Under the pieces are notes generated by a model. It worked only from the letters and a program-made list of their open reading frames with translations. It was not told the origin of the DNA and did not search any database. A stretch of 64,000 nt of DNA, taken from positions 236,215 to 300,214 of the forward strand of contig CAYFPM010000001.1 of assembly GCA_964345045.1 (NCBI GenBank), read 5' to 3'. Both the position numbers and the translations under genes were made by a program. The DNA is from an uncultured Gammaproteobacteria bacterium (lineage in GTDB: Bacteria; Patescibacteriota; Patescibacteriia; Magasanikbacterales; UBA922). This document shows, one piece after another, positions 1 through 58,511 of this stretch (position 1 is the stretch's first letter; every line of letters starts with the position of its first letter).

Positions 1-132
1 ATTGTGGTGGACACGATGAAAGAAAATGTTACCGGCGCAATAACCGCTAACATCGCAAACATCGTGATCGTGGGAGTGATTATCTTCTCAATCGGATTTG
101 TTTGGCGTCTTGCTCGTCGCTTCATGCGATAG
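1..132 (+). CDS. Partial CDS (C-terminus) of a small membrane protein resembling an inovirus major coat protein
   Basis: Frame 1 reads ...IVVDTMKENVTGAITANIANIVIVGVIIFSIGFVWRLARRFMR*. This gives an amphipathic N-part, a hydrophobic helix and a basic C-tail, which is the classic g8p architecture. It sits directly upstream of the large secreted ORF. Confidence 0.4.
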   Translation: MVVDTMKENVTGAITANIANIVIVGVIIFSIGFVWRLARRFMR

Positions 133-199
133 GCATAGCACGGTGGGGGCTTGCACTCAATATGCAAAGCCCCCAACGCCGTGCAGTAACGAACCTATT

Positions 200-1912
200 A
201 TGAAACTCTCCTTACTTAAATATAGATTACTCCGCACGCTTGCTGTTCTTTCCACTCTTGCCGTGTCTTTTTTGTTTGTCCATGCTGTTCATGCAGAATC
301 ATTCGAGGCAGATGTTGCCGATTTTGCCCCAGCGTCAAATTGGTACACCTGGTTTATTCGAAGCAGTAACGAAACAGGACACGGACAAAAGTTTATCACT
401 GCCGTTGATACAGAAGCAATCCAAACAGTAGGATTTAAATTGTGTCGTCTTGGAAACTTAGTACACCCAAAGACACTCACACTGTGCAACAGTGCAACCA
501 ACGGATGGTACGGAGGATGTAGTGATCCACTCGCCACAAAAGAATTTACCGCAGAAGAACTCAATGAGATGATCCACTACGACCTAAATTGTAATTCTAA
601 CTTAGAGGGTGGACAAGAAGACGGTGAATTTTTTAAGTGGGCATACTTTAGCTTTGATGAGCCTGTAAATGTTAGTAGCTCACAACATTACTTTGTTCTC
701 TTAAACAGTGCGTCGAGTGCTGACAACGAATCAGGCTCTAAACTTCGCACGATGTATAACAACTCAAACTATCTCGGAAGCAGTGCGGATTATCCCGATG
801 GACAAGCCTACTACTACAAAGGAGCAACCAGATACACCTCGGGAGCGTCCACAGATATTTTCTTCAAAATATTTAGTGCTGACCCGATTACAATTCCATT
901 TGAGATTACCTCACCCGTACAAGATCAAGAAGTTATCAATGACACATGGATTACTGTATCGGGAACCTGTCCGTACGTGGGAGAAAATAGAATCGGATTT
1001 ACTGATGACTGTCTCGGATTTGAAGAAATTGAATATACCGCCTCATGTACCGAAGACAATACCTTTTCCGCACAGTTCTACCACACCAGTTTATCCGACC
1101 GAGTGATAGCACGAGATATAGAAAGCGTCTCTGGTGATTGTGTTGATTACGATGACCTCATGGATTTCGTCACGGTAGACGGCATTGAATTTGTGGACGG
1201 CTACCCCGAGGATTGGTATTTCAACTTTGGACTCTACGACGATTACAACATACAAATTAAGTCACCGAGCTTTGATACCGCTCTCACACTCCCGAAAGGC
1301 TCAACCAGTAAAGACTTTACATTTAGCTTTACTTATCCCGATGGAACAATAGATAGCCTGACGTTCAACATCAAACAATATGACAGTGACGGAACAGAAC
1401 TTAATGCGGCATTTCATACTCGCACACTTGCAAGCATGGCGGACACGAACGACTACACCGTAACACTCTCCGCTTCTACGACACCGTATCATTATGTTGT
1501 GCAACTCATAGAAGACGGCACGCTGAAACGACAATATCCATTTGGAGTTTATGTTTCAGATTTAGATTTTGTCGGCAACCCCGACGACGACGGTGGATAT
1601 TTCTTTCCTCGCATTGTCGAAGAACTCCGCAAAAAGATTGTATTCAACTATTACTTTGCCTTTCATGACGGCTTTTACAACATGTTCAATGGACAATATT
1701 CAAGCCCCTCACCGACGGCACTCGACATTACATTCAAAAGTGTATCGGGCAATGGACAGTATGACCTTGACGTCAAAATATTTTCCGCGAGCGATCCACG
1801 AGTAAAGGCATTTTCAAGTGGTCTTCGTCCGTACATTGTCGCCCTCTTGTGGCTCGGCTTTGCTCTTTACGTGGTGTTCCGAGTGACGCATTTATTCAGT
1901 GATAACCAGTAG
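200..1912 (+). CDS. Large secreted protein with C-terminal membrane anchor. Candidate phage adsorption/minor coat protein (g3p-like by position).
   Basis: Internal Met at 200 begins MKLSLLKYRLLRTLAVLSTLAVSFLFVHAVHA, a signal peptide. The C-terminus PYIVALLWLGFALYVVFRV is a TM segment. It lies between the coat-like ORF and the Zot-like ORF. No sequence-level homolog recognised. Confidence 0.5.
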   Translation: MKLSLLKYRLLRTLAVLSTLAVSFLFVHAVHAESFEADVADFAPASNWYTWFIRSSNETGHGQKFITAVDTEAIQTVGFKLCRLGNLVHPKTLTLCNSATNGWYGGCSDPLATKEFTAEELNEMIHYDLNCNSNLEGGQEDGEFFKWAYFSFDEPVNVSSSQHYFVLLNSASSADNESGSKLRTMYNNSNYLGSSADYPDGQAYYYKGATRYTSGASTDIFFKIFSADPITIPFEITSPVQDQEVINDTWITVSGTCPYVGENRIGFTDDCLGFEEIEYTASCTEDNTFSAQFYHTSLSDRVIARDIESVSGDCVDYDDLMDFVTVDGIEFVDGYPEDWYFNFGLYDDYNIQIKSPSFDTALTLPKGSTSKDFTFSFTYPDGTIDSLTFNIKQYDSDGTELNAAFHTRTLASMADTNDYTVTLSASTTPYHYVVQLIEDGTLKRQYPFGVYVSDLDFVGNPDDDGGYFFPRIVEELRKKIVFNYYFAFHDGFYNMFNGQYSSPSPTALDITFKSVSGNGQYDLDVKIFSASDPRVKAFSSGLRPYIVALLWLGFALYVVFRVTHLFSDNQ

Positions 1913-1915
1913 CCT

Positions 1916-2161
1916 ATGTTTAGCTTTATAGAATCAATCCTTGTAAAGATTATTTCGCTTTTGCCTGACGCTGATCCGAGCAATTCCGTTATCACGGCCG
2001 TAACGAGTGCGTTTGCGACAATCACCCCGACATTCTCACAAATTGACCTTATCTTCCCGATATTCGTCTTGTTCAAAGTCTTGCTTCTCGTGATGTTCGT
2101 TGAAATGACCATATTCTTATTCACCTTTATCTTGCAAATCGCAACATTCTTTAAGCCATAA
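1916..2161 (+). CDS. Small hydrophobic membrane protein (g6p-like by position)
   Basis: 81 aa with two or three hydrophobic helices. It is tightly packed between the adsorption-like and Zot-like genes, with a 4-nt gap and then a 5-nt gap. Confidence 0.4.
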   Translation: MFSFIESILVKIISLLPDADPSNSVITAVTSAFATITPTFSQIDLIFPIFVLFKVLLLVMFVEMTIFLFTFILQIATFFKP

Positions 2162-2166
2162 CTAAT

Positions 2167-2871
2167 ATGATCACCATTGTTACAGGAAAACCAGGAGCAG
2201 GAAAAACCCTCTACATGACATACAAGGCACTTGAGATGTTTCTCAAAGGACATGATGTATACGCAAATTGGAAACTCAACTTCACGCCCTATGTCATAAA
2301 GAAAAAAGTGGACTTGAAAAAAGTCGGCCGTGTCTACTTCTGGTCTGAAATACCTGAACTCCTCCATATTAAAGGCGGACAGATATTTATAGACGAAGCC
2401 CAAGGATATTTTGATAGCCGTGAGTGGCAAGACATGCCTCCGTCGGCAAAACAAAAATTCTCTGCTCACCGTCACGATGTACGGAAAGATAAAGATGGAA
2501 ATACCATCCCACTCGACATATACGCAGGCGTACAACATACAGGAAACATTGATAAACGGATACGAGATTTAGGACAACACTTTCTAGAAGTACGCAATGT
2601 CTTCAAAAAAGTATTCATGGCTTCACACTTTGAACTGCATGATCTCAAAGATGACAACGTAAAACGACGAGCCATTAAACGCTCATTCTTCCTCATGAAC
2701 AAACTCAAAGCCAACTGCTACAACACCCACGAAGCCGTGAACTTCATCGAATACCCAAACTTCCCATACCACCGAAAATATCCGCACAGATTCTCCAACG
2801 AAAATACAGGACTCATTCCCGACACCCCAGACATACCCCCATATTCCAATCAGCAACGCAAAAAAAGGTAG
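2167..2871 (+). CDS. Zot-like P-loop NTPase (filamentous-phage assembly protein, g1p family N-domain)
   Basis: N-terminus MITIVTGKPGAGKTLYMTY is a Walker A motif. IFIDEAQ is a Walker B-like motif. 234 aa is consistent with the Zot N-terminal domain. Confidence 0.65.
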   Translation: MITIVTGKPGAGKTLYMTYKALEMFLKGHDVYANWKLNFTPYVIKKKVDLKKVGRVYFWSEIPELLHIKGGQIFIDEAQGYFDSREWQDMPPSAKQKFSAHRHDVRKDKDGNTIPLDIYAGVQHTGNIDKRIRDLGQHFLEVRNVFKKVFMASHFELHDLKDDNVKRRAIKRSFFLMNKLKANCYNTHEAVNFIEYPNFPYHRKYPHRFSNENTGLIPDTPDIPPYSNQQRKKR

Positions 2872-2879
2872 TAGTTCAA

Positions 2880-3281
2880 TTAAGAACTACTACCGACCTG
2901 TTCTACTTGCTTAATGTAAAACAGGTTTACCCGTTTCGGGTATTTGCGAACGACAGTACCGTCCTTGTCTTTCTTCTCAATGATGATGAAAGACTTGAGG
3001 GCTTTTTCGCCCTTTTTAACCTGATAGCCCATTTCGAGCCATCGGTTATACGTTAAACAATTACTTTTTGGATCGTAATTGTTTGCGTCTTCTTCGCCGA
3101 ACCGATCAAGGATCTGTTTGCGAATAAGGTCTGAAGTTACTTCAGAACCTTTCCATGTGGAAACTAATTTGTTTTCCATAGAACTAAATATATCACGGTC
3201 GAATGAAAACGTCCGTGGCTGACCGTTTAGTGCCGTATCGGACAGGAACAGAAACAGCGTCTGATAGCTTGCTTTAGTCAA
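2880..3281 (-). CDS. ArdC-N / DUF1738-like ssDNA-binding domain protein
   Basis: The motif CLTYNRWLEMGYQVKKGEKALKSFII matches the ArdC N-domain signature WLTFKQA..LGG.VRKGEKG. It is divergent to Rep, in the position where an ssDNA-binding protein (gV analogue) would be expected. Confidence 0.45.
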   Translation of the reverse strand: MTKASYQTLFLFLSDTALNGQPRTFSFDRDIFSSMENKLVSTWKGSEVTSDLIRKQILDRFGEEDANNYDPKSNCLTYNRWLEMGYQVKKGEKALKSFIIIEKKDKDGTVVRKYPKRVNLFYIKQVEQVGSSS

Positions 3282-3405
3282 GGTGGAGACTTGTACAACC
3301 TTTATTCAAGAAAAGCTGACGCTACACTGAAACAACCTGATACGGAAAAAACGAGCTACATATTATCTATCGGTGAATCTATACCGATCATCCCGTAAGT
3401 AATCA

Positions 3406-3435
3406 TTTTTTTCTCGTCTGCCCGACGAAAAAAAA
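3406..3435. promoter_or_regulatory. A/T-flanked hairpin in the divergent intergenic region upstream of Rep. Candidate rolling-circle origin (nick site hairpin).
   Basis: tttttttctcgtc tgccc gacgaaaaaaaa forms a long imperfect hairpin. A second inverted repeat atcggt..accgat lies at 3367-3390. Confidence 0.25.
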
Positions 3436-3514
3436 TGAGTGCTTGCGAGAGGTATATCGCAGATACAACTATTACTCTCTTAACTTGATTATATCCACAC
3501 ATCTAACGAAAACT

Positions 3515-4291
3515 ATGGCACATTCCTACACACTCAAAGTAGTTGTGTCGGGAAAGCAGGTCGAAGTATTCAAATATAGCAAAGAAGTGTGGCGTGACTA
3601 TGACTCATCTCCAAAACAAGTCACTACTCAAAAGGAGTCCAAGCAATTAAACATGTTCGAACAAGAAGCACTGCGACAGAAAAAGGTGCAATATTCAATT
3701 AACCGAACGAAAACAGAGATACGCCGTCAAATTAACGCCAATCCGCAACTGAATAAGTTTATGACCCTGACTTTCGCCGACAACATCACTGACATCAAAA
3801 CTGCGAACTACATGTTTAATCAGTTTATTAAGCGTATCTCATATAAATACAAAAATTTCGAGTACTTTGCTGTACCTGAATTTCAAAAGCGTGGGGCTGT
3901 TCACTATCATGTGCTATGCAACCTACCATACATCGAAATGAACGTCTTAGAGTACGTTTGGGGGCATGGCATGGTAAATATCCGTAAAGTAGACGAAGTG
4001 AACAACCTCGGGGCGTACATGAGCAAATACTTAGGTAAAGAACTGTTCTCTGGTCGCATGTTTGGTAAAAAGAAATTCTTTCGTTCACAGTCCTTAAAAT
4101 CTCCTGTAGAGCTTCTTGCATGGTGGGCGAGAAAGTTTATTGAGAAGTTTCTTTCACTGCTCACACCAGTCTTTGAAAAGACGTTTGAGAGTGAATACAT
4201 GGGAGAGGTTGAGTACAAGGCGTATACGCTCGACTTTTTCCCGTCCAAGTGCAATGACCCGCAATGGTCGATAGTTTTTAATAACTCCTAA
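3515..4291 (+). CDS. Rolling-circle replication initiator (HUH endonuclease superfamily, phage Rep/gpA-like)
   Basis: HUH motif in GAVHYHVLCN. Two-tyrosine motif YMSKYLGKE (YxxKY). The likely start is the internal Met MAHSYTLK. The listed ORF starts at 3443. Confidence 0.65.
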   Translation: MAHSYTLKVVVSGKQVEVFKYSKEVWRDYDSSPKQVTTQKESKQLNMFEQEALRQKKVQYSINRTKTEIRRQINANPQLNKFMTLTFADNITDIKTANYMFNQFIKRISYKYKNFEYFAVPEFQKRGAVHYHVLCNLPYIEMNVLEYVWGHGMVNIRKVDEVNNLGAYMSKYLGKELFSGRMFGKKKFFRSQSLKSPVELLAWWARKFIEKFLSLLTPVFEKTFESEYMGEVEYKAYTLDFFPSKCNDPQWSIVFNNS

Positions 4292-4292
4292 C

Positions 4293-4451
4293 ATGATCTC
4301 TCTTGCGAAATTCAAAGAGCTTACCGAGTCGGAAGGTCTATACCTATCTGATCTTGAGGCACTCGAAGCAAGAGAAACAATCTCCCAGTTATTAGAAATT
4401 GCGTTCAATACATGGATGGAACAACAAAAAGAAACAAAAACATCGACTTGA
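4293..4451 (+). CDS. Small hypothetical ORF (52 aa) between Rep and recombinase. Possible recombination directionality factor or other.
   Basis: ATG..TGA open frame MISLAKFKELTESEGLYLSDLEALEARETISQLLEIAFNTWMEQQKETKTST, below the ORF-track cutoff. No recognised motif. Confidence 0.2.
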   Translation: MISLAKFKELTESEGLYLSDLEALEARETISQLLEIAFNTWMEQQKETKTST

Positions 4452-4608
4452 TTTTTTTGTATGTTCTTGATACTATTCCTTTGGACTCAACTCAAATCAC
4501 GATTTTTTTGTGCCATAATTTTTGATATTGTGGCGAGAAAAGGGAGCAATCCTGCTTCAACGTCTTCGTGATTGTTGAGTCCAAGCAGTTCTTTGCTTCC
4601 TTTTTTAT

Positions 4609-6150
4609 TTGCATATGAAAAAACAACTACAACGAGGTGTCATCTATTACAGAGTATCGACAGCAGAACAGGCTGAACGTGGTTTTAGTTTGGAAAATCA
4701 ACGTGAGGCGTGTTTGCATTACGCAAAAAGCAAGGACATTGATGTGATAGGCGAATATCATGATGACGGAATTTCTGCAAAGACAACAAATCGCAAAGGG
4801 CTACAGAATATGCTCCAATTTTGTTCTACCAAAAGCAATAAGATTGATTGTGTGATTGTAAACAAGGTTGACCGCCTTTCTCGAGATGTGAATGATTACA
4901 CGAGTATTTTCACACAGCTCAAAGGGCGAGGTATCACGCTCATCTCTACCACGGAAGCAATAGACAATACACCATTTGGAAAGTGTGTCGGTAATATCAT
5001 GGCGACATTTGCACAGCTAGACAATGACATGCGAAGCGAGCGAGTCACGGCAGGAATGAAAAAATGTATTGAGTCTGGTCGCTGGCCGTTCAAGGCTCGC
5101 ATTGGGTATCTCAATTACACAGACGCAGACGGCAACAAAAGCATAATTGTTGATCACAAAAAAGCTCCATTGGTACGCTTCATTTTTGAAGAATATGCAA
5201 AAGGAGTATACACCGAGGAAGAAGTACGGCAACAAGTAAACGCCAAGGGATTGCGTTCATCGAATGGAAAAGAAGTATCTCCGCAGTTTATCCATAAAAT
5301 ACTCTCTGATAAATTCTATATCAGTATCATGACAATGAACGGCGTGGAATATCCAGCATCGCATGAGCCGATTATCCGCAATGAAACGTATTATCAGTGC
5401 CAAAAGTTCATGCGAAAGTACGACAAAAAGACAAACATGTCGCTCAAAAAGAAAAACGAGCTATTTCCGCTTAGAAATTTTGTATTGTGTGGAGAGTGTA
5501 GTCGTCCATTAACCGCTTCTTTGTCTACCAGTCATACAGGCAAGAAATTTCCATATTATCGGTGCTATAACAAAGAATGCACTGCTCCAAAGTCTCTCTC
5601 TAAGGACAGGCTAGAGAGTGAGTTTTTCGATTTTCTCAAAGAACTTGCACCAGACAAACGGTATCTCAAAGTTATACGACACATGGCTCTTGAACTATGG
5701 GAAAAGAAGTATAAAGAGATGAATGTAAGCAATGAACAAATACAGAGAGAAATTGACATACTCAAAGAGAAAAAAAGAAAGACCTTTGATCTGCTCGGCA
5801 AAGGTATTATTGATGATGAAGATTTCAAAGAAGAACTTGACCGCATTAAAGCCTCGATTCAAGATAAAGAAGAATTGCTACACCAAACACCCAAAGAAAA
5901 TTTTGACCTAGAGAAAGCAATGGATATGTGTTTTGATTTCTTTTTGGAAGTGCCTGAACATTGGCAAAAGGCGACCTACACAAAGAAAATACAACTTCAG
6001 AGTTCGATTTTTTCAAAAAAACCCTCGTACCATTATCCAAAATTTGGAACCCCTAATTTTTCGCTAATCTTTCAACAAAAAAGAGACTCTGCACATGCAA
6101 AATCCCTTTTGGTAGCCCGTAGGGGAATCGAACCCCTGTTCCCAGGATGA
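4609..6150 (+). CDS. Large serine recombinase (resolvase/invertase N-domain, recombinase domain and zinc ribbon). Candidate integrase of the element.
   Basis: N-terminus VIYYRVSTAEQAERGFSLENQRE carries the catalytic Ser motif. C-terminal half has Cys pairs LCGECSRPL...YYRCYN. The last 41 nt overlap the 3' end of tRNA-Glu on the opposite strand. Confidence 0.85.
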   Translation: MHMKKQLQRGVIYYRVSTAEQAERGFSLENQREACLHYAKSKDIDVIGEYHDDGISAKTTNRKGLQNMLQFCSTKSNKIDCVIVNKVDRLSRDVNDYTSIFTQLKGRGITLISTTEAIDNTPFGKCVGNIMATFAQLDNDMRSERVTAGMKKCIESGRWPFKARIGYLNYTDADGNKSIIVDHKKAPLVRFIFEEYAKGVYTEEEVRQQVNAKGLRSSNGKEVSPQFIHKILSDKFYISIMTMNGVEYPASHEPIIRNETYYQCQKFMRKYDKKTNMSLKKKNELFPLRNFVLCGECSRPLTASLSTSHTGKKFPYYRCYNKECTAPKSLSKDRLESEFFDFLKELAPDKRYLKVIRHMALELWEKKYKEMNVSNEQIQREIDILKEKKRKTFDLLGKGIIDDEDFKEELDRIKASIQDKEELLHQTPKENFDLEKAMDMCFDFFLEVPEHWQKATYTKKIQLQSSIFSKKPSYHYPKFGTPNFSLIFQQKRDSAHAKSLLVARRGIEPLFPG

Positions 6151-6184
6151 AAACCTGGTGTCCTAACCACTAGACGAACGGGCC
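6110..6184 (-). tRNA. tRNA-Glu (anticodon TTC), CCA encoded
   Basis: Reverse complement GGCCCGTTCGTCTAGTGGTTAGGACACCAGGTTTTCATCCTGGGAACAGGGGTTCGATTCCCCTACGGGCTACCA. The acceptor stem pairs, the anticodon loop is TTTTCAT and the T-loop is GGTTCGATTCC. Confidence 0.85.
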
Positions 6185-6185
6185 A

Positions 6186-6428
6186 TTAAATTATTCTCTT
6201 TAACAATTCTTCTTTTGTAGAACTGTGTTTTTTGAGTTTATTTTCTCTTTTTCTTGCTAAGCTCAATGTATTGTAAGCTTCGTAGTATACCAACTTCCAA
6301 GGTTTTTTTGTTTTTGTGTATTTTGATTTTCCCAAGTTGTGATCTTTAAATCTTTTTTTAAGATCACTTGTTGACCCAATATAATAAGTAAGATCTTTCT
6401 TACTTTGAATTACATATACGTAGTGCAT
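6186..6428 (-). CDS. GIY-YIG nuclease superfamily protein (YhbQ/UPF0213-like, about 80 aa)
   Basis: MHYVYVIQS...YYIGSTSDLKKRFKDHN...WKLVYYEAY..ARKRENKLKK. RBS AGGAGG lies 5 nt upstream of this Met. The listed ORF starts at 6470, but the extra N-terminal codons cover two tetraloop hairpins and a tRNA fragment. Confidence 0.7.
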   Translation of the reverse strand: MHYVYVIQSKKDLTYYIGSTSDLKKRFKDHNLGKSKYTKTKKPWKLVYYEAYNTLSLARKRENKLKKHSSTKEELLKRII

Positions 6429-8628: not shown

Positions 8629-8692
8629 TACCCCCTCAGTCCTTGCTCTACTTCGTGAGCTCGGACAGCTCCCCCTACTAGGGGGAGCAAAA
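8629..8692. repeat. GC-rich hairpin repeat, family F2 (CTCCCCCT-N4-AGGGGGAG core)
   Basis: cagctccccctactagggggagc with upstream ccttaccccctcagtccttgctctacttcgtgagctcgg. Related to the in-frame insert in uppP at 49655..49745 and to hairpins at 58377..58397. Confidence 0.5.
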
Positions 8693-8738
8693 GAAGAAAT
8701 ACTAATATAATTAGTTTAAATTCAATAACTTATATACT

Positions 8739-9179
8739 ATGAGTGAAGAAACACAAACTCCTGCAGTAGAGGAGAAAAAAGACGTAGAAGTACCTGCAAA
8801 ATTTAAATCTCTTGTAGAAGAGGTTGAAAAAATGTCTGTACTAGATTTGTCAGAACTTGTAAAAGTTCTAGAAGACAAATTTGGTGTTAGCGCTGCTGCT
8901 CCAGCTGCCATGATGATGGCTCCAGGAGCTGCTGCTGGTGGAGACGCTGGTGCTGCTGCCGAAGAAAAATCAGAATTCAATGTAGAACTTACAGATGCTG
9001 GTAGCAACAAAATTGCTGTTATCAAAGCTGTAAAAGCTGCTACTGGTTTGGGACTAGCAGATGCCAAAGCTTTGGTAGACGGTGCTCCAAAAGTAGTAAA
9101 AGAAAATGTAAAGAAAGAAGAAGCCGAAGAATTGAAAAAAGCTATCGAAGAAGCTGGTGGAAAAGCAGAACTAAAATAA
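8739..9179 (+). CDS. rplL: 50S ribosomal protein L7/L12
   Basis: MSEETQT...[22 protein letters not shown]..., an Ala/Gly hinge, then ...[13 protein letters not shown]. Confidence 0.95.
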
Positions 9180-9230: not shown

Positions 9231-11384
9231 CTATTCTAGATCAAAAGAGTAAATTTTATTTTGATCCAAGATATATACCAAATCTTTTTCTTCTAGCACC
9301 ACCATGCCAGTTGGGTTTTGCCAATCTGTACTAGTATATTGGCCAATTAATCTACCATCTTTGGCCAAAATCACCACTCTTTTTTGGCTAGGTTCTAAAA
9401 TATATAAATTATTTACATCGTTGTAAGTCCATATTTGTTTAGGATTGGTTAGGGTTGGATCTAGGCCTGTGATATCAAAATTTTCTTTTCGGCCTTTGGT
9501 AAATTTGTTTAAGATTCCGTCTTCGTTTAGTACAAAGATATCCCCATCGATAGCCAATGAAGTAGCTTGACTCAAATCAATATTAGTATCTTTCAACCAT
9601 TTGGAACCACGATCAAAACCAGTTTGAGTGGTGCTGTGTTTTAGAATTTGGCTGTTATTTTTATCTACACTGTAGAGACGTTGATTGTATACAACCAAAC
9701 TTCCAATCTCAGAATCTTCAGACACATCCAAATCTTTGGCTACAACGGCGCCTGTTTCTTTGTCAAAAATCGCAATTTGGTTTTTCCCAGACAAAAATAC
9801 TATTTGGTCTTGTTCTTTTGGAGTACTGGCTTGTGCTAATTTTAGAGCAGAACTATATTCTTTTGACTCAAAATTATTGGTGTCTGTATCAAATAAATAT
9901 AATTTTTGTTCACCTTCTCCAAAGGCTACCAATTTATTGTCTATAATAGCTAGTTCGGAGACATTAACATTTTCGGTTTTTGTGGCAATATCAAAAACTA
10001 ATTTAGCTTCAACATCTTTTACTTTTCTTAGTACTTGTAATTTTTCTTCTATACTTTGGGCAAGTTTTTGTTTTTGGGATATTTCTTCGTCAGACTTGTC
10101 TGGCAAATTTTCTATCATTTGGCTGGCTTCTTGAAGTAGGTTAAAAGCTTTGCTTTCGTCTTCGTAGATCATACTAGCTTCGGCAGCATCTCTTTTGTCT
10201 ACAATTGCTTGAATTTGGTTTTGGTATTCGGCCTCGGCTTGGATTTTGGCTTCGCTTATTTTGGAAATAGAGACACTAGCCAAAAAACCAATCCCAAGCA
10301 AAACTGTAATCAAAAATAAAATTTTGCTAGCCAGAGGAAGATTAGTAACAAAATCTTTTTTCCTTTGGATAGAATTTTCTATACTTTGCAAAACAATTTG
10401 TCTTTGTCCGCCGCGGTTAGTGATTAGAAGTATAATAGAAACAAGTACCTGCCACAGCCAGATAGCAATAGATTTTATAAGTTTATAAACACCAATAGAA
10501 CCAGCTACCAAGGCTCTCCCCAAAGTAATAAGGGTAATCGCAAAAAAACTTTGTTCTTCCATATCATGTCTAGGACGGTAGTTGGTCTCTATTTTTGGTT
10601 TTTTTATAGAGTATTTAGGAGCAGTTTTTTTGAGGGTAGGTTTTTCTTCTATATAATCATCATCTTCTTCTTCCACAACGTTAGTAGCTTCTATTTTGGG
10701 GCTAGGATTTTTTGCAATCAAGCGGTTTGATTTTGTAGGGGAGTGAAAAAGAATTCCCCCATAAGATAGTTCATTTTTCAAATTACTTAAGACCTTTTGG
10801 ACATGAGCCGCACTGTGTCTGGTAGTCCTCGAGGCGACTATTTTTTTGATTCGGTCTACAGAGATAAAATCAATTACATGAGGAGTGGTAACATATAGGT
10901 AATCGCCATCTTTTAATTCTCCTTCCAATACGGCCGAAAAAAGTTGTTCGTCGTCAGCTTCTTCTTCGGTTGCCAAGATATCAATGTCGTGTAGTTCTTC
11001 TTTTTTGCTAAAGATTAGATTGGCAGATGGGTTGCCGTGGTAGGCCAGTGAAACCTTGTTTTCTTTTAGAACACCCACAATACAATTAACTATAGAATTT
11101 CTATTGTCTAATATATGGTGGCCACGTCGGTTGATATGCTCTAGGGTCAGTTCAAAAGGATCTTTGTCGTCTTTTGGTTCCAGTTCGTAATATCCAGATT
11201 CCAAGTCGTCTATCATTTCTTGCAAATGTTCGATTTGTTCTATAGAGCCTGCATTTATTTCGCAGACAGCAAAAAAATAGCCTCTCTCTATTTCATCGGA
11301 AGTTGTGGGTTCTGTGATGTGCAACAGTACGTGTGATCTATTTTGATCTCCACCTTCTACAAAAAATTCGTGTAACTCTATCAT
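9231..11384 (-). CDS. Large membrane protein with C-terminal beta-propeller-like repeats. Function unknown.
   Basis: 717 aa. Central TM helices (FFAITLITLGRALVAGSIGVY..., ILFLITVLLGIGFLASV). A coiled-coil stretch. C-terminal repeated YxxD/N-rich strands typical of propeller folds. Confidence 0.65.
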   Translation of the reverse strand: MIELHEFFVEGGDQNRSHVLLHITEPTTSDEIERGYFFAVCEINAGSIEQIEHLQEMIDDLESGYYELEPKDDKDPFELTLEHINRRGHHILDNRNSIVNCIVGVLKENKVSLAYHGNPSANLIFSKKEELHDIDILATEEEADDEQLFSAVLEGELKDGDYLYVTTPHVIDFISVDRIKKIVASRTTRHSAAHVQKVLSNLKNELSYGGILFHSPTKSNRLIAKNPSPKIEATNVVEEEDDDYIEEKPTLKKTAPKYSIKKPKIETNYRPRHDMEEQSFFAITLITLGRALVAGSIGVYKLIKSIAIWLWQVLVSIILLITNRGGQRQIVLQSIENSIQRKKDFVTNLPLASKILFLITVLLGIGFLASVSISKISEAKIQAEAEYQNQIQAIVDKRDAAEASMIYEDESKAFNLLQEASQMIENLPDKSDEEISQKQKLAQSIEEKLQVLRKVKDVEAKLVFDIATKTENVNVSELAIIDNKLVAFGEGEQKLYLFDTDTNNFESKEYSSALKLAQASTPKEQDQIVFLSGKNQIAIFDKETGAVVAKDLDVSEDSEIGSLVVYNQRLYSVDKNNSQILKHSTTQTGFDRGSKWLKDTNIDLSQATSLAIDGDIFVLNEDGILNKFTKGRKENFDITGLDPTLTNPKQIWTYNDVNNLYILEPSQKRVVILAKDGRLIGQYTSTDWQNPTGMVVLEEKDLVYILDQNKIYSFDLE

Positions 11385-27479: not shown

Positions 27480-27551
27480 GTCATCCTGAGGTAAAACCGA
27501 AGGATCTCATTGGAAGTCCGAAGAGATTCTTCCCTGTCGCTTAGAATGACT
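27480..27551. repeat. Hairpin repeat family F1, copy 1
   Basis: gtcatcctgag gtaaaaccgaaggatctc attggaagtccgaag agattcttccctgtcgc ttagaatgact. Confidence 0.7.
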
Positions 27552-27561
27552 TATAAAACAT

Positions 27562-30383: not shown

Positions 30384-30477
30384 AGTCATCCTGAGCAAAG
30401 TGAGCTTAAAAGGCGAACGCCGTCGAAGGATCTCTTCGGACTTCCACTGAGATTCTTCGCTGACGCTCAGAATGACT
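30384..30477. repeat. Hairpin repeat family F1, copy 2 (central loop inverted relative to copy 3)
   Basis: agtcatcctgagc ... cgaaggatctc ttcggacttccactgag attcttcgc tgac gctcagaatgact. The loop is the reverse complement of the copy-3 loop. Confidence 0.7.
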
Positions 30478-30509
30478 TTTACAAATTAGTCATTTAATTA
30501 CAAAACAAT

Positions 30510-33769: not shown

Positions 33770-34100
33770 TTGTTAATCTAAGCAAAGTGGCGCTGAATAA
33801 CAGGGCAGGAGAGTGATCCTGTTTTGTTTACGGCGTTAGATTCTCTAAGGAAGGAGGAGATGTGGTACTCAAATACTGGCATAAGCTATGCCGTTGGTGG
33901 TCTTCACCACCTGTACAGGAGGTGGTTGTCTCGCGACACAAGTCGACCGTCATCGAGAGCGTCAACTTGCGGATGTGGAGCGCTCCGGCCTGGAGGCGCA
34001 TCGCTCGCAAGCTCGAACTGTCGCGTCGGGGGGCAAGCTAGACGAGTCTTGGCTGGCAGGTATCGGTTGTCACTGACCGATACCTGCCATCTGCCTATCA
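33770..34100. other. GC-rich (about 60%) segment with no convincing ORF, inside the liv operon
   Basis: Strong hairpins, including ccacctgtacaggaggtgg and the 13-bp stem ggcaggtatcggt tgtcactg accgatacctgcc. The overlapping listed ORFs give low-complexity Arg/Ser/Gly-rich translations. Confidence 0.3.
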
Positions 34101-34146
34101 GAATTTCAAAGTTTTGTTTTATAGTTTTAATTTACAAAATTAAGTC

Positions 34147-35025
34147 ATGGTTTTTTCGCAACTTTTAGTAAATGGCCTTATTGCTGGATCGATTTACGCC
34201 CTAATTGCTAGTGGTTTTGCTTTGATTTATTCCACCAACAGATTTGTGCATTTTGCTCATGGCTCGGTAGCTGCTACTGGGGCGTATTTTGTCTATTTAT
34301 TCTTTAGCATTATAGGATTAAATTTTTATTTAGCTTCATTTTTAGCGATTATTTTTACTGGCCTGTTTGGCGGGTTAATCTTTTTCTTATTTTACAATCC
34401 GCTCATCAAACGCGAATCTTCGGCCGCTATTTTGCTTATTGCTAGCCTTGGTCTTTCAATCTTACTCGACAATTTACTTCTTTTAGTTTTTGGAGCGGAT
34501 GTTAAGATTTTGAATTTTATAGAATCGAGCAAAGGTTTGGAATTTTTGGGAGCAGTTATTACCCCCCTACAAATAATAATTATTCTTACTTCATTAGTTT
34601 CTTTGTGTTTACTTTGGTTTTTTGTTTACAAAACCAACTTTGGCCGGATAGTGCGAGCTGTGGCTGACAATAGCAACTTGGCCGAGATAACCGGTATAAA
34701 CGTAAGATTAGTCAGGTATGCTGGGTTTGTGGTTGGCTCGCTCATGGCTGGGGTAGCAGGCATTCTCATTGGCCTAGAGCAAAATATCGAACCCACCATG
34801 GGCGTGCATCTAATAGTCAAAGGCTTTACTGGGGCTATTGTCGGGGGAGTAACCTCTATTCCAGGTTCTGTCTTGGGGAGTTATCTCTTGGGCATAGTAG
34901 AGAATTTTGGAATCTGGTACTTGCCAAGTGGTTACAAAGACGCCATTGCTTTTGGTTTGCTATTGGTATTTTTGCTGTTTAGGCCAACTGGCATCTTGGG
35001 CATAAACAAAGGCGCTAGAAAATAA
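34147..35025 (+). CDS. Branched-chain amino acid ABC transporter permease (LivH-like)
   Basis: Multi-TM protein with the family pattern ...GLIFFLFYNPL... Confidence 0.8.
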   Translation: MVFSQLLVNGLIAGSIYALIASGFALIYSTNRFVHFAHGSVAATGAYFVYLFFSIIGLNFYLASFLAIIFTGLFGGLIFFLFYNPLIKRESSAAILLIASLGLSILLDNLLLLVFGADVKILNFIESSKGLEFLGAVITPLQIIIILTSLVSLCLLWFFVYKTNFGRIVRAVADNSNLAEITGINVRLVRYAGFVVGSLMAGVAGILIGLEQNIEPTMGVHLIVKGFTGAIVGGVTSIPGSVLGSYLLGIVENFGIWYLPSGYKDAIAFGLLLVFLLFRPTGILGINKGARK

Positions 35026-48756: not shown

Positions 48757-49339
48757 TTGAGTGTCGCGTGACCCAACTCTTCACCTAAGGAAGTTCAGAC
48801 CCTTCATCCCTACCTGGCCTCAAGAGGAGGCGCAGGTGGGCTTCCGTTTTGTCAGTTTGAGGGGCCCCAAGCAACTTGTCCGCCGGTTGCTTTCGGGGAA
48901 GTATGTTTAGGGCGGCATTCACCACCCCTTTCAACGTGTCGGAAGTGTAAGGTCTTTCCAAGTACCCCTGAATTATCCCACCTTCAATCAACTGGCGCAT
49001 TTCGGGCACAACAGCGCTCGACCAGCCAGAAGTTATGACGACAGAAGTCTCCCAGTCGGTTCCTCGGAGTTCCTGAACAAATCGCAAACCGAACGCGTCC
49101 TTACCTAGGTTTACAATAACCAGGCGGAATTGTCCGGATTGTGCTCGTTGAATTCCTTCGCCGCCATCGCTGGTCGACGAAACTTCCACACTTTTCACAC
49201 AGCGTGAGATGCCCCGATGTAACATCTCTGCCATCGGGAACCTCACGTTGGTGTCCACTACCAGTATTTTGTGCAAGAGGCACCCCCTTTCGTGGGGTCA
49301 TCCCTTCTCGCTAGCTAGGAGTGGGTCACGCGACAAGCC
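48757..49339. mobile_element. GC-rich (about 55%) cassette bounded by inverted repeats of about 18 bp, carrying one ORF
   Basis: Left gagtgtcgcgtgacccaactc and right gagtgggtcacgcgacaag are reverse complements of each other, 17 of 18 positions. The cassette sits between the metK terminator and uppP. Confidence 0.45.
48785..49276 (-). CDS. Stand-alone CheY-like receiver domain with Asp-to-Asn at the phospho-acceptor position (pseudo-receiver)
   Basis: KILVVDTN... QFRLVIVNLGKD ... SVVITSG ... GGIIQGYLERPYT follow the receiver-fold motif order. Asn stands where the phosphorylated Asp would be. Confidence 0.5.
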   Translation of the reverse strand: MHKILVVDTNVRFPMAEMLHRGISRCVKSVEVSSTSDGGEGIQRAQSGQFRLVIVNLGKDAFGLRFVQELRGTDWETSVVITSGWSSAVVPEMRQLIEGGIIQGYLERPYTSDTLKGVVNAALNILPRKQPADKLLGAPQTDKTEAHLRLLLRPGRDEGSELP

Positions 49340-49414: not shown

Positions 49415-50323
49415 ATGACAGCTCTAGAAGCCCTAGTTTTGGGCATAATCCAAGGTTTAACAGAGTTTTTGCCAGTCTCTTCGTCTGGCCATCTTGTATT
49501 TATGCCACATATTTTTGGCTGGGCATATCAGGGTTTGGCTTTCGATGTAGTGGTGCATATGGGCACTTTGGTGGCAGTAATTTTTTATTTTAGAAAAAAG
49601 CTGTGGCAGATAGTAAAGTCTCTTTTTTCCAAGAATATTGGTCAGACTGCCGGTACTCCCTTAGACTCGTCCTCCCTTCCGCAGACCCCCTCTTCCCGCT
49701 CGCTCCGCTCGCGGGGTCTCCCCCTAAAAGGGGGAGAGGAAACAAATGTTTCTAGACTAGGATGGTTTCTTTTGCTTAGCATTATCCCAGCTGGTTTATT
49801 TGGATTGCTACTGGGGGATTTTGTAGAGACTAGTTTGCGTTCGCCTTGGGTGGTGGGAGTTAGTCTAATTTTTTGGGCAGTGGTACTGGCTGCTGCCGAT
49901 GGTTTTGGCAAAGGCCTTGCAGACAAAAAAGCCAACAAAGACTTAGAAAAAATAACTTTTAAAAATGTGTTGTTTATTGCCTTGGCTCAGGCAATAGCTT
50001 TAATCCCAGGGACTTCTCGTTCTGGTATTACTATGACTGCCGGGCTATTTGCTAAGCTAGACAAAAAGTCTGCTGCCGAATTTAGTTTTCTTATGTCGGT
50101 GCCGGTCATAACTTTGGCCGGAGTCTACAAACTTTTTCAAGTAATAAACAATGGAACAATGGGGCAATGGGACAATACGTTTTTAGTAGGCTTCTTGGCT
50201 TCCACAATCAGTGGTTTTCTAGCTATCAAGTTTTTAATGAAGATAATCCAAAAGTGGAGTTTTATGCCGTTTGTAGTTTATAGAGTGGCCATTGGGACTC
50301 TCATCCTTTTTTATCTTACTTAA
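49415..50323 (+). CDS. uppP: Undecaprenyl-diphosphatase (BacA/UppP) with an in-frame GC-rich hairpin insertion in a loop
   Basis: GLTEFLPVSSSGHL ... PGTSRSGITM are BacA motifs. A roughly 35-aa Pro/Ser/Arg-rich insert (TAGTPLDSSSLPQTPSSRSLRSRGLPLKGGEETNV) sits between TM2 and TM3. Confidence 0.9.
   Translation: MTALEALVLGIIQGLTEFLPVSSSGHLVFMPHIFGWAYQGLAFDVVVHMGTLVAVIFYFRKKLWQIVKSLFSKNIGQTAGTPLDSSSLPQTPSSRSLRSRGLPLKGGEETNVSRLGWFLLLSIIPAGLFGLLLGDFVETSLRSPWVVGVSLIFWAVVLAAADGFGKGLADKKANKDLEKITFKNVLFIALAQAIALIPGTSRSGITMTAGLFAKLDKKSAAEFSFLMSVPVITLAGVYKLFQVINNGTMGQWDNTFLVGFLASTISGFLAIKFLMKIIQKWSFMPFVVYRVAIGTLILFYLT
49655..49745. repeat. F2-family GC-rich hairpin element inserted in-frame in uppP
   Basis: gctcgctccgctcgcgggg tctcccccTAAAAgggggaga gg. 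Compare 8629..8692. Confidence 0.55.
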
Positions 50324-55900: not shown

Positions 55901-55972
55901 AGTCATCCTGAGCGTAAGCGAAGGATCTCAGTGGAAGTCCGAAGAGATCCTTCGCTTACGCTCAGGATGACT
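55901..55972. repeat. Hairpin repeat family F1, copy 3 (perfect 29-bp stem)
   Basis: agtcatcctgagcgtaagcgaaggatctc agtggaagtccgaag agatccttcgcttacgctcaggatgact. Confidence 0.8.
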
Positions 55973-56019
55973 GCACTACTAATTAACTAATAATCTAATC
56001 AACTAATAAATTAATATAT

Positions 56020-57948: not shown

Positions 57949-58010
57949 TTTTGTTTATAAAGGCAAGTAGGGTAGAATAAGCTCTACTTGCTTTAATTAA
58001 ATATAAATTT

Positions 58011-58352
58011 ATGTCTTATTACCTAAGATGTTCCAACTGCGGTGCTTATACAAATAACCGAAGCTGATTCCCAAATGATTCATCTGAAAAAATTTGTCCC
58101 AAATGTTATTTGAGTTTTGAAAAAGATACTTTGGTAGAGGGATTTGGTAAATTTGGTAATTTATTAGACGAAGGTGATGATCCAAACAAAGAAAAATTAA
58201 GAATGGCAAAAAAAGCAATGGAGCGTGCTTTTGATTTGGGAGCAGAATGGGTAGAAAAAGATGGTACTCCTATAACAGATGAAAAATACCTTGAACTTTT
58301 GGCAGAGATGAAAATAGAAAGAGGTGAAGGGGGGCCTGGGGTAAAAAAATAA
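58011..58352 (+). pseudogene. Zinc-ribbon plus acidic small protein ORF interrupted by one in-frame TGA
   Basis: MSYYLRCSNCGAYTNNRS, then TGA at 58065-58067, then FPNDSSEKICPKCYLSFEKDTLVEGF...GEGGPGVKK in the same frame. The stop falls between the CxxC and CPKC halves. Confidence 0.4.
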
Positions 58353-58511
58353 TGATTTAAACTAACATAGAAAGTTCTCCCTCCTGATAGGAGGGAGGCA
58401 GAGGGAGGTCTCTATCTAGCTTAAGACCTCACCCCTGCCTACCGGCAGGCAGGCTGCCTCTCTCCTAGAAGGAGAGGGGACTTGTTAAAAAAGTAAATTA
58501 TATAAAAAGTC
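58353..58511. repeat. GC-rich multi-hairpin intergenic block, related to family F2
   Basis: ctccctcc tgat aggagggag, cctgcc tacc ggcagg, cctctctcc taga aggagagg. Confidence 0.4.

Follow-up and report, generated by a model that had tools for sequence, protein, structure and literature searches.

What is a GC-rich palindrome doing within the reading frame of a cell-wall gene? The question is raised by uppP, the gene for undecaprenyl-diphosphate phosphatase (BacA family), which lies at 49415..50323 on the plus strand of a 64,000-nt stretch of Patescibacteria DNA (hereafter the window, meaning this stretch as a whole) and which harbours a GC-rich segment of 96 nt at 49649..49744. A preliminary description had located a GC-rich element in essentially the same part of the gene (49655..49745) and treated it as a hairpin element. 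The notion of a dispersed hairpin repeat is upheld by the analysis presented here, but that of a hairpin alone is not, since a mirror-image box beside the hairpin adds the layout of an intrastrand triplex motif. The explanation that we regard as probable is that a small structured DNA repeat of this triplex-motif type, selfish or neutral in character, has colonised uppP and is tolerated there within a permissive loop of the protein.

Anatomy of the uppP insert

The 302 aa product of the open reading frame (ORF) matches PF02673 with an E-value of 7.5e-81 (Pfam), identifying it as UppP/BacA, and its nearest named relatives belong to Candidatus Magasanikbacteria (Patescibacteria, also termed the Candidate Phyla Radiation, CPR). 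The inserted segment, delineated on the plus strand by a GC island scan, has a GC content of 66 % compared with 38 % for the gene, the latter value being also that of the window. It covers residues ~79–110, and its translation (GQTAGTPLDSSSLPQTPSSRSLRSRGLPLKGGEE) forms a Pro/Ser/Arg/Gly-rich loop after the second membrane helix, so that the insertion is indeed in frame, as initially proposed. The stretch from R60 to P125 thereby comprises 65 residues, compared with 35–37 in most of 98 UppP genes drawn from Magasanikbacteria and a wide range of other bacteria (among the matches listed), and this loop is the longest amongst 120 close homologues. Alignment of the E. coli UppP structures 5OON and 6CB2 to residues 4–73 and 113–297 skips the insert, whilst an AlphaFold model (pTM 0.77) gives residues 79–106 a pLDDT of <50 between confident helices at 60–76 and 108–140. 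The ~30-residue insert peptide would be a by-product of the DNA repeat, and is probably a disordered linker. The ORF is intact through the insert, and the alignment shows no change in either catalytic motif, LTEFLPVSSSGHL or PGTSRSG; together with the predicted disorder of the insert, these features were counted towards tolerance, and the extra residues are presumably neutral for the enzyme. In E. coli UppP the active site opens towards the periplasm; as, in addition, the flanking YFRKKLW...SKN stretch is basic, the enlarged loop would be expected to lie on the cytoplasmic side. The insert is not an assembly artefact, as two sequencing runs of a single project yielded contigs coding for the identical protein, the longest of these contigs extending to 621 kb.

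At the nucleotide level, the main hairpin, TCTCCCCCT-AAA-AGGGGGAGA (49717..49737, plus strand), has a pyrimidine arm and a purine arm on either side of its loop and a perfect 9-bp stem; it can equally be taken for a stem of 8 bp closed by TAAAA, the form in which it was originally reported. A mirror box, ACCCCCTCT (AGAGGGGGT on the minus strand), is located at 49685..49693 on the plus strand and represents the putative third-strand (Hoogsteen) domain; it agrees with the mirrored hairpin arm, which begins 23 nt downstream, at 9/9 positions when either T or A is accepted opposite A. Between box and main hairpin, at 49694..49716 on the plus strand, the minimum-free-energy fold contains a spacer hairpin, UCCCGC...GCGGGG, such that 49690..49745 folds at −27.2 kcal/mol (z −2.65) into two adjacent Watson–Crick hairpins in the sense RNA. 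Read on the minus strand, the unit is TCTCCCCCT-TTT-AGGGGGAGA-(23 nt)-AGAGGGGGT. The general repeat unit is composed of a C-rich box, often a spacer hairpin of variable sequence, and then a pyrimidine/purine hairpin. In the uppP copy and in a second copy between rplJ and rplL the box, ACCCCCTC(T), is unpaired, and spacer hairpins comparable to that of uppP are found in the rplJ–rplL copy, in the uppP gene of a related locus (L003), and in three copies (L030, L026 and L114) from a collection of viral contigs.

The relation of box to hairpin arm is that of a mirror image, and is neither a direct nor an inverted repeat. It covaries in all seven sequence variants found: box CCCCCTCT accompanies arm TCTCCCCC in the window uppP and in L087, CCCCCTC accompanies CTCCCCC in the rplJ–rplL spacer, CCCCCTCC is paired with CCTCCCCC in L003 and L038, CCCCTCCC with CCCTCCCC in L004, CCCCCTCCC with CCCTCCCCC in L074, CCTCCCTC with CTCCCTCC on the other strand of the window at 58377, and CCTCCCC with CCCCTCC in L012. 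As an unbiased test of this mirror rule, the viral contig collection was scanned for the hairpin alone (CTCCCCCT-N3-AGGGGGAG), which returned 89 unique occurrences. The sequence CCCCC[A/T]C lies within 45 nt on the pyrimidine side in 55 of these; the mirror form of the box outnumbers the direct form by 25 to 4 (p 1e-4), and CCCCCAC outnumbers CACCCCC by 33 to 8, whilst a complementary box on the wrong side or strand is seen in 2 cases vs 58. The distance from box to arm is usually 5–7 nt, extending up to 33 nt where a spacer hairpin intervenes. Acceptance of A or T opposite an A-T pair is as permitted in a purine-type triple helix on the G-rich strand.

Because its flanking box mirrors the hairpin arm, the uppP element is placed in the class of intrastrand triplex motifs, earlier known as BoxC or PIT elements, which are abundant in prokaryotes (Holder et al. 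2015, NAR 43:10126, PMC4666352); judged on its sequence, it appears to be a variant of this class and not the G/C-rich TMECO motif itself. On the G-rich strand, which is the template of uppP, the order of blocks is pyrimidine arm, purine arm and G-rich box, and the box could fold back antiparallel upon the purine arm to generate G.G-C, A.A-T and T.A-T triples. Purine-type triplexes do not form in RNA (PMC4666352), and so any triplex would have to involve DNA, namely the strand that is the template (minus) for uppP. A pyrimidine-type triplex within the sense RNA, which would need five adjacent protonated cytosines, is unlikely at neutral pH.

Dispersed copies and recurrence at the UppP loop

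Within the window, CTCCCCC-N5-GGGGGAG occurs twice (8669 and 49718) against an expectation of 0.03, with 0/100 shuffles reaching two, and there are ~11 distinct GC-rich perfect hairpins compared with a mean of 0.65 in Markov shuffles. Scanning for triplex-type motifs by the published logic of Holder et al., with a longer second loop allowed, returned four motifs in the window vs none in 30 shuffles, namely 8630..8688, 49685..49737 and an inverted pair within 58372..58486. A likeness of the uppP element to hairpins after rplJ and at 58377 had been remarked upon beforehand, and in both cases the resemblance holds. The copy in the rplJ–rplL spacer (8630..8688, plus strand) contains the same three parts, with box ACCCCCTC at 8630..8637, a spacer hairpin at 8639..8666 and the main hairpin, GCTCCCCCT-ACT-AGGGGGAGC, at 8668..8688, and folds at −32.2 kcal/mol (z −5.4). 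The 58377 hairpin is a unit of the same kind on the other strand, and forms one half of a 115-bp palindromic pair (58372..58486, no strand assigned) situated between an 80-aa ORF and dnaJ, which folds at −70 kcal/mol (z −5.9). Its left unit (58377..58408, on the other strand relative to the uppP copy) reads CTCCCTCCT-GAT-AGGAGGGAG-GCA-GAGGGAGG and is followed by central hairpins; the right unit comprises the box ACCTCAC at 58426..58432 and a hairpin at 58457..58479. The dnaK–dnaJ spacer measures 564 nt in the window (57949-58511) but only 86 nt, without the inverted pair, in the syntenic locus L198. The element is likewise dispersed beyond the window: motifs of the same type in other Magasanikbacteria loci (L008, L009 and L012) are all intergenic, and mostly just 3′ of genes. 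Units near-identical to those of CPR bacteria are also present in viral-collection contigs of 44–70 % GC, where they occur in both orientations with respect to genes; ORF calls are crude at high GC, and hence no inference is drawn from their orientation. No further copy was found in the 7.8 kb to the left of the window (L202).

With regard to the origin of the insert, the comparison drew upon 120 close homologues and 80 distant UppP genes, with 98 genes entering the loop and hairpin counts; the distant genes (35–51 % identity) came from a metagenome scan, among the matches listed, and serve as a control set rather than as close relatives. The loop is short in most of the close homologues and most of the distant genes (again among the matches listed). 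An alignment of UppP orthologues had been put forward as a check, with conservation of the insert in distant orthologues free of such elements elsewhere as the refuting outcome. Once run, it did not refute the earlier reading, the insert being absent from most orthologues, including L198 and the sister gene of L004. L198 is syntenic with 41–63 kb of the window through 14 orthologue pairs of 56–88 % protein identity; its short UppP loop leaves a 40-residue gap opposite 49622..49741, and the uppP insert is the sole large window-specific insertion among these 14 pairs. Taken together, the sequences support an acquisition, not an ancestral feature of UppP.

Triplex motifs are present at this loop in the window, L003 and L004. 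In L003, which shares the order metK, response regulator, uppP with the window, the insert has CCCCCTCC as its box and GGCCTGCGGCC as its spacer, and its hairpin matches that of the window throughout the 19-nt core (19/19). L004 carries a compact form, ACCCCTCCC-TAA-CCCTCCCCT-ACG-AGGGGAGGG, and in all three genes the 3′ end of the insert lies 12–17 nt from the conserved RLGW codons. The window and L003 inserts are read one base out of register, yielding GLPLKGGEE and PPPPKRGRE, respectively; given these different frames, the peptide is not the conserved entity. Nor are the bases common to both inserts a product of neutral inheritance, because four-fold degenerate sites are saturated (36 % identical between window and L003, and 31–40 % across the uppP genes of window, L003 and L004).

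As to the number of gains, the L004 protein falls in a tight clade of a neighbour-joining tree built without the loop; its nearest relative, P0035/L196, is 80 % identical in amino acids, and the motif is absent from L196 and from seven other members of that clade. The UppP proteins of window, L003, L197 and L198 are about equidistant (64–68 % aa identity), with the motif only in the first two, and L003 is nearer to the insert-free P0005 than to the window protein. As L004 has an insert-free sister, and only window and L003 carry the motif among equidistant genes, at least two gains of a triplex-type motif at this loop are likely, and on the same sequence comparisons the number was probably three. 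The uppP of P0058 (L199) contains at most an eroded motif and was left out of these counts.

Perfect hairpins of ≥7 bp are found at the loop in six of the 10 UppP genes with loops of ≥42 residues, compared with 3/88 of those with shorter loops (among the matches listed), and they are of several kinds. L200 harbours a different GC hairpin (CCCGCC...GGCGGG), AT-rich hairpins, 8-bp ones among them, occur in L006, L007, L179 and L201, and heptamer tandems are present in L005 and L201, the tandems being (GAAACAA)x4 and (GGAATCT)x3, the latter adjoining a palindrome. Since several unrelated kinds of repeat occupy this one loop, we read it, from the sequences, as a permissive site at which frequent small-repeat insertions are filtered by protein tolerance. 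In uppP, a repeat copy would have entered the loop that follows membrane helix two, and persisted because its length keeps the frame, the frame used is free of stops and the loop tolerates extra residues. A conserved functional hairpin in all UppP genes was considered and rejected, as loops of normal length, the above 3/88 aside, are without a hairpin.

A number of individual copies and neighbouring features merit description in their own right. The phage contig L087 (viral collection, 44 % GC) contains, at 8706-8752, a unit made up of box CCCCCTCT and CTCCCCCTAAAAGGGGGAGAG, with box and hairpin the same as in the window uppP copy; this sits between ORFs of 762 and 858 aa within a tail module, on a contig with a tail completion/Neck1 match. 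In L114 (viral collection, 64 % GC), the unit at ~10660-10730 is almost base-identical to the L003 uppP insert (2318-2370) in box, spacer GGCCTGCGGCC(A) and hairpin, although the two genomes differ greatly in base composition. L009, from another Magasanikbacteria genome, displays an inverted triplex-type pair around a central hairpin at 10831-10915, directly after the uppP stop. Another family of GC-rich hairpin, CCAGAGGC-GGACCA-GCCTCTGG, is present in L198, where a gene for glycoside hydrolase 10 reads it in frame as STRGGPASGW (5197-5236), together with a similar hairpin unit in a different UppP loop (~10412-10445, read as IQPEAGQPLAE). The 80-aa ORF in the dnaK–dnaJ spacer of the window (58110-58352) has no Pfam match and a G-rich 3′ end. 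Upstream of uppP lies a response-regulator homologue (48785-49276, minus strand) with 49–60 % GC throughout, the genome having 38 %; Pfam gives no match for it, whereas its orthologues in L003, L198 and L199 match Response_reg, and its C-terminus extends beyond theirs.

Elsewhere in the window, most genes are carried on the plus strand, along a rising cumulative GC skew. A 61-nt repeat belonging to a different family from the triplex-type repeat is present in three copies of 79–80 % identity (27498-27558, 30424-30484 and 55919-55979) with the internal palindrome GAAGGATCTC...GAGATYCTTC; the copies are intergenic, just upstream of a class II aminoacyl-tRNA synthetase gene, tpiA and dnaK. A further 116-nt stretch of 65 % GC (33951-34066) falls within a 114-aa ORF (33824-34168) that has neither a Pfam nor an Rfam match, and is located just upstream of branched-chain amino-acid permease genes.

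Alternative explanations

Could the structure instead be selected in cis, to halt transcription or translation for a time once membrane helix two is complete, or as a means of controlling uppP expression? The motif occupies the same loop in three lineages with the C-rich box always on the sense strand, its stems are perfect despite saturated synonymous sites, unrelated hairpins lie at the same loop in L006, L007, L179 and L200, and the purine arms, on our own reading of the sequence, resemble Shine–Dalgarno sequences. A cis-acting role is nevertheless unlikely, as the hairpin is absent from most orthologues (and from all but 3/88 normal loops, each with a 7-bp stem, among the matches listed), close relatives do without it, the motif type is intergenic and in both orientations elsewhere, and one orientation in 3/3 cases has a chance probability of 0.25. 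Furthermore, in vivo work on E. coli BoxC elements, as cited in PMC4666352, found no effect of the promoter, terminator or polymerase kind. A broader proposal, which we consider doubtful whilst granting it some room, is that triplex motifs form an active cross-phylum family, spanning Patescibacteria, bacteria of 60–70 % GC and a tailed-phage contig, with a real site preference in coding DNA; repeated capture at the UppP loop would then reflect targeted insertion or a selected nucleic-acid structure.

A single ancient insertion in the ancestor of window and L003, kept at the nucleotide level and lost precisely in L197, L198 and others, has the merit that both genes fall in one broad clade of the neighbour-joining tree and share box, 19-nt hairpin and position, with 3′ ends within ~2 codons of one another. 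We think it improbable, because window, L003, L197 and L198 are about equidistant and L003 sits closer to the insert-free P0005, the spacers (GGCCTGCGGCC and CGCTCGCTCCGCTCGCG), reading frames and lengths differ, several exact in-frame losses would be needed, and L004, with its insert-free sister gene, would be left unexplained. Far less plausible still is the birth of the palindrome in place, by template switching or slippage in C-rich loop-coding DNA and with no arrival of an element. The heptamer tandems in the L005 and L201 loops do point to slippage-prone DNA, and neither a mobility gene (window plus 7.8 kb) nor a clean target-site duplication was found; template switching, however, yields inverted and not mirror repeats, the rplJ–rplL spacer, L003 and the phage contig L087 each carry the three-part unit with almost every base the same, and the island stands at 66 % GC in a 38 % GC gene. 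Scarcely credible, finally, is the idea that the extra loop is a functional protein segment, such as a docking site, the DNA palindrome being an accident: the frame does run on through the insert in an otherwise intact gene, but the same DNA is read in two frames across lineages to give unrelated peptides, the insert is missing from nearly all orthologues, and the segment is predicted to be disordered (pLDDT <50).

Colonisation by a small, tolerated repeat thus remains our preferred explanation, although several observations weigh against it. Pfam searches of the 64-kb window and of 7.8 kb upstream of it found no transposase or REP-associated tyrosine transposase (RAYT), a serine recombinase aside, and no significant target-site duplication was seen by eye at the uppP insert. 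The filled/empty pair of L004 and L196 does not present a clean insertion, as the surrounding loop residues also differ. Contigs of the two other insert-bearing uppP genes measure only 3.6 and 1.8 kb, too short to assess the repeat elsewhere in those genomes. Three matches at one loop could reflect selection for structure there, and uppP is richer in hairpins than other genes (0.42 vs 0.13 per kb), a figure that is inflated and on which we do not rely, since L003 and L004 were chosen after hairpins had been suspected and 3/7 hairpins stem from such loci. Lastly, the second loop of the uppP copy is 23 nt as against the published 1–6 nt, so that its triplex is putative.

Relation to known repeat classes

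Small palindromic repeats that lengthen proteins are reportedly known from Rickettsia, where Rickettsia palindromic elements (RPE) are said to have been described by Ogata and colleagues in 2000. Their in-frame insertions are summarised in a 2024 review (PMC10969869), and repetitive extragenic palindromic (REP) sequences lie within genes in several species, some Rickettsia RPEs having been equated with CGTC-type REPs (Di Nocera et al. 2013, PMC3733652). Such repeats lie between genes as well as in frame in unrelated housekeeping genes, where they add 20–50 residues in loops; like them, the repeat found here is small, palindromic, and both intergenic and in frame in a housekeeping gene, whose product it lengthens in a loop. 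As with RPEs, the protein is not destroyed and the genome is reduced and small. In the window, one copy, that of uppP, is in frame and the remaining units fall between genes, a likeness to RPEs in behaviour; kinship in sequence would not be expected. The features of RPE and CGTC-type REP sequences (a CGTC tag, an 8-9 bp stem, A/T at the first two positions and a CCA tail) are not evident in the uppP repeat, the mirror box falls outside the definition of either, and recurrent gains, across several lineages, at a single loop of the same gene are not described for RPE or REP in the literature found. The flanks of the uppP hairpin, ...GGGGT/CTCCCCC and GGGGGAGAGG/AAAC, compared only with the REP tag definitions (an unpaired GTAG or CGTC, with TGTC/CCTC as variants, at one end), contain neither GTAG nor CGTC, whilst some viral-collection copies display CGTCC or TGTC before the stem. 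Next to Rickettsia, this may be a second case of a reduced genome whose proteins are made longer by palindromic repeats.

REPs mobilised by RAYT are similarly short GC-rich extragenic hairpins, mostly 3′ of genes and often in inverted pairs, but the GTAG tag by which they are marked is absent from the uppP repeat, and no Pfam domain of a Y1 (RAYT) transposase was detected in the 48 window ORFs or the called genes of L001/L202 (~72 kb out of ≥621 kb of genome). Miniature transposable elements of the inverted-repeat type (MITEs) such as Correia/NEMIS and ERIC are likewise palindromic and non-autonomous, and at times form in-frame fusions with ORFs; unlike them, the single units described here, of 50–60 bp, have no terminal inverted repeats or convincing target-site duplication, and only the 115-bp pair at 58372..58486 has a MITE-like look. 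The sole direct repeat flanking the uppP insert, TAGACT at 49671 and 49753, is within chance and would break the frame. An integrated element unrelated to the uppP repeat occupies 1-6200 of the window, with a GC content of 40–44 %, and adjoins a tRNA-Glu gene (6110-6184, minus strand). It encodes a Zot-like ATPase (2167-2871), an ArdC-N-like ORF (2880-3281, minus strand), Rep ORF2/G2P (3443-4291) and a large serine recombinase (4609-6150), has LexA-like and Fic genes upstream (L202 1-7834), and looks like an inovirus-type or other single-stranded DNA element.

Searches for a ready-made name produced little: Rfam matched only tRNA families across the window, the 500 bp around the insert and 15 motif loci, literature searches with literal sequence strings (AGGTGGGGGT and similar) gave primers and eukaryotic promoters only, and a search on palindromic insertions in the Candidate Phyla Radiation gave nothing relevant. 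It is with intrastrand triplex motifs (Hoyne et al. 2000 on BoxC/PIT, as cited in PMC4666352) that the closest correspondence is seen. TMECO follows the pattern CCCTCNCCC-N3-6-GGGNGAGGG-N3-GGGNGAGGG, and in vitro forms a stable class II purine-type triplex by circular dichroism and nuclear magnetic resonance, with a melting temperature of 70–82 °C (PMC4666352). In E. coli K-12 it is 'always located intergenically', without strand bias, sometimes in inverted pairs and without a link to mobile elements, and no function has been demonstrated beyond an association with genome rearrangement (PMC4666352). The published search tool, ITxF, looks for pyrimidine-rich, purine-rich and reverse-Hoogsteen blocks with a stem of 6–15 nt, no more than one mismatch and loops of 1–6 nt (PMC4666352). 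On its minus strand the uppP copy has this order of blocks, a perfect 9-bp stem (49717..49737) and a third block that mirrors the arm at 9/9 positions; its first loop is 3 nt, but its second, at 23 nt with a hairpin, exceeds the published range, whereas three other copies (58377..58408, L004 and L087) stay within it, with loops of 3–4 nt. The published finder would therefore miss variants with a hairpin in the second loop. The strict TMECO pattern, searched as a regular expression on both strands, was absent from the window and all Magasanikbacteria loci, and occurred five times in viral-collection contigs.

In these terms, the mirror box of the uppP repeat corresponds to the reverse-Hoogsteen domain of BoxC/PIT/TMECO. 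As in TMECO, G/C-rich blocks on one strand form a pyrimidine arm, a purine arm and a G-rich mirror block (with A/T opposite A), stems are 8–9 nt and the first loop is 3 nt, and the motifs are dispersed, in both orientations, sometimes in inverted pairs and with no associated transposase known. The L004 uppP copy, CCCTCCCCT-CGT-AGGGGAGGG-TTA-GGGAGGGGT, is one base per stem below TMECO and has the TTA second loop in common with it. The window stem differs (CTCCCCC against CCCTCNCCC), as does the second loop of the uppP and rplJ–rplL copies, which at 23–31 nt with its own hairpin departs from the published criterion. As far as was searched, the novelty lies in the group to which the host belongs, the location within a translated frame, the gain of the motif more than once, and in different frames, at a single loop, and the long-loop variant. 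Filled and empty sites of this kind would offer natural material for studying how triplex repeats spread, and a clear instance of DNA, rather than the peptide, being the target of selection or homogenisation; equally, CPR gene calls and protein-family alignments will include loops derived from such repeats. BoxC/TMECO-type motifs have been known for decades from hosts amongst the Proteobacteria and Cyanobacteria, and in E. coli K-12 from intergenic positions; here, in contrast, the host is a member of the Patescibacteria with an ultra-small genome, and the uppP copy lies inside coding sequence, so that an essential cell-wall enzyme contains its translation product.

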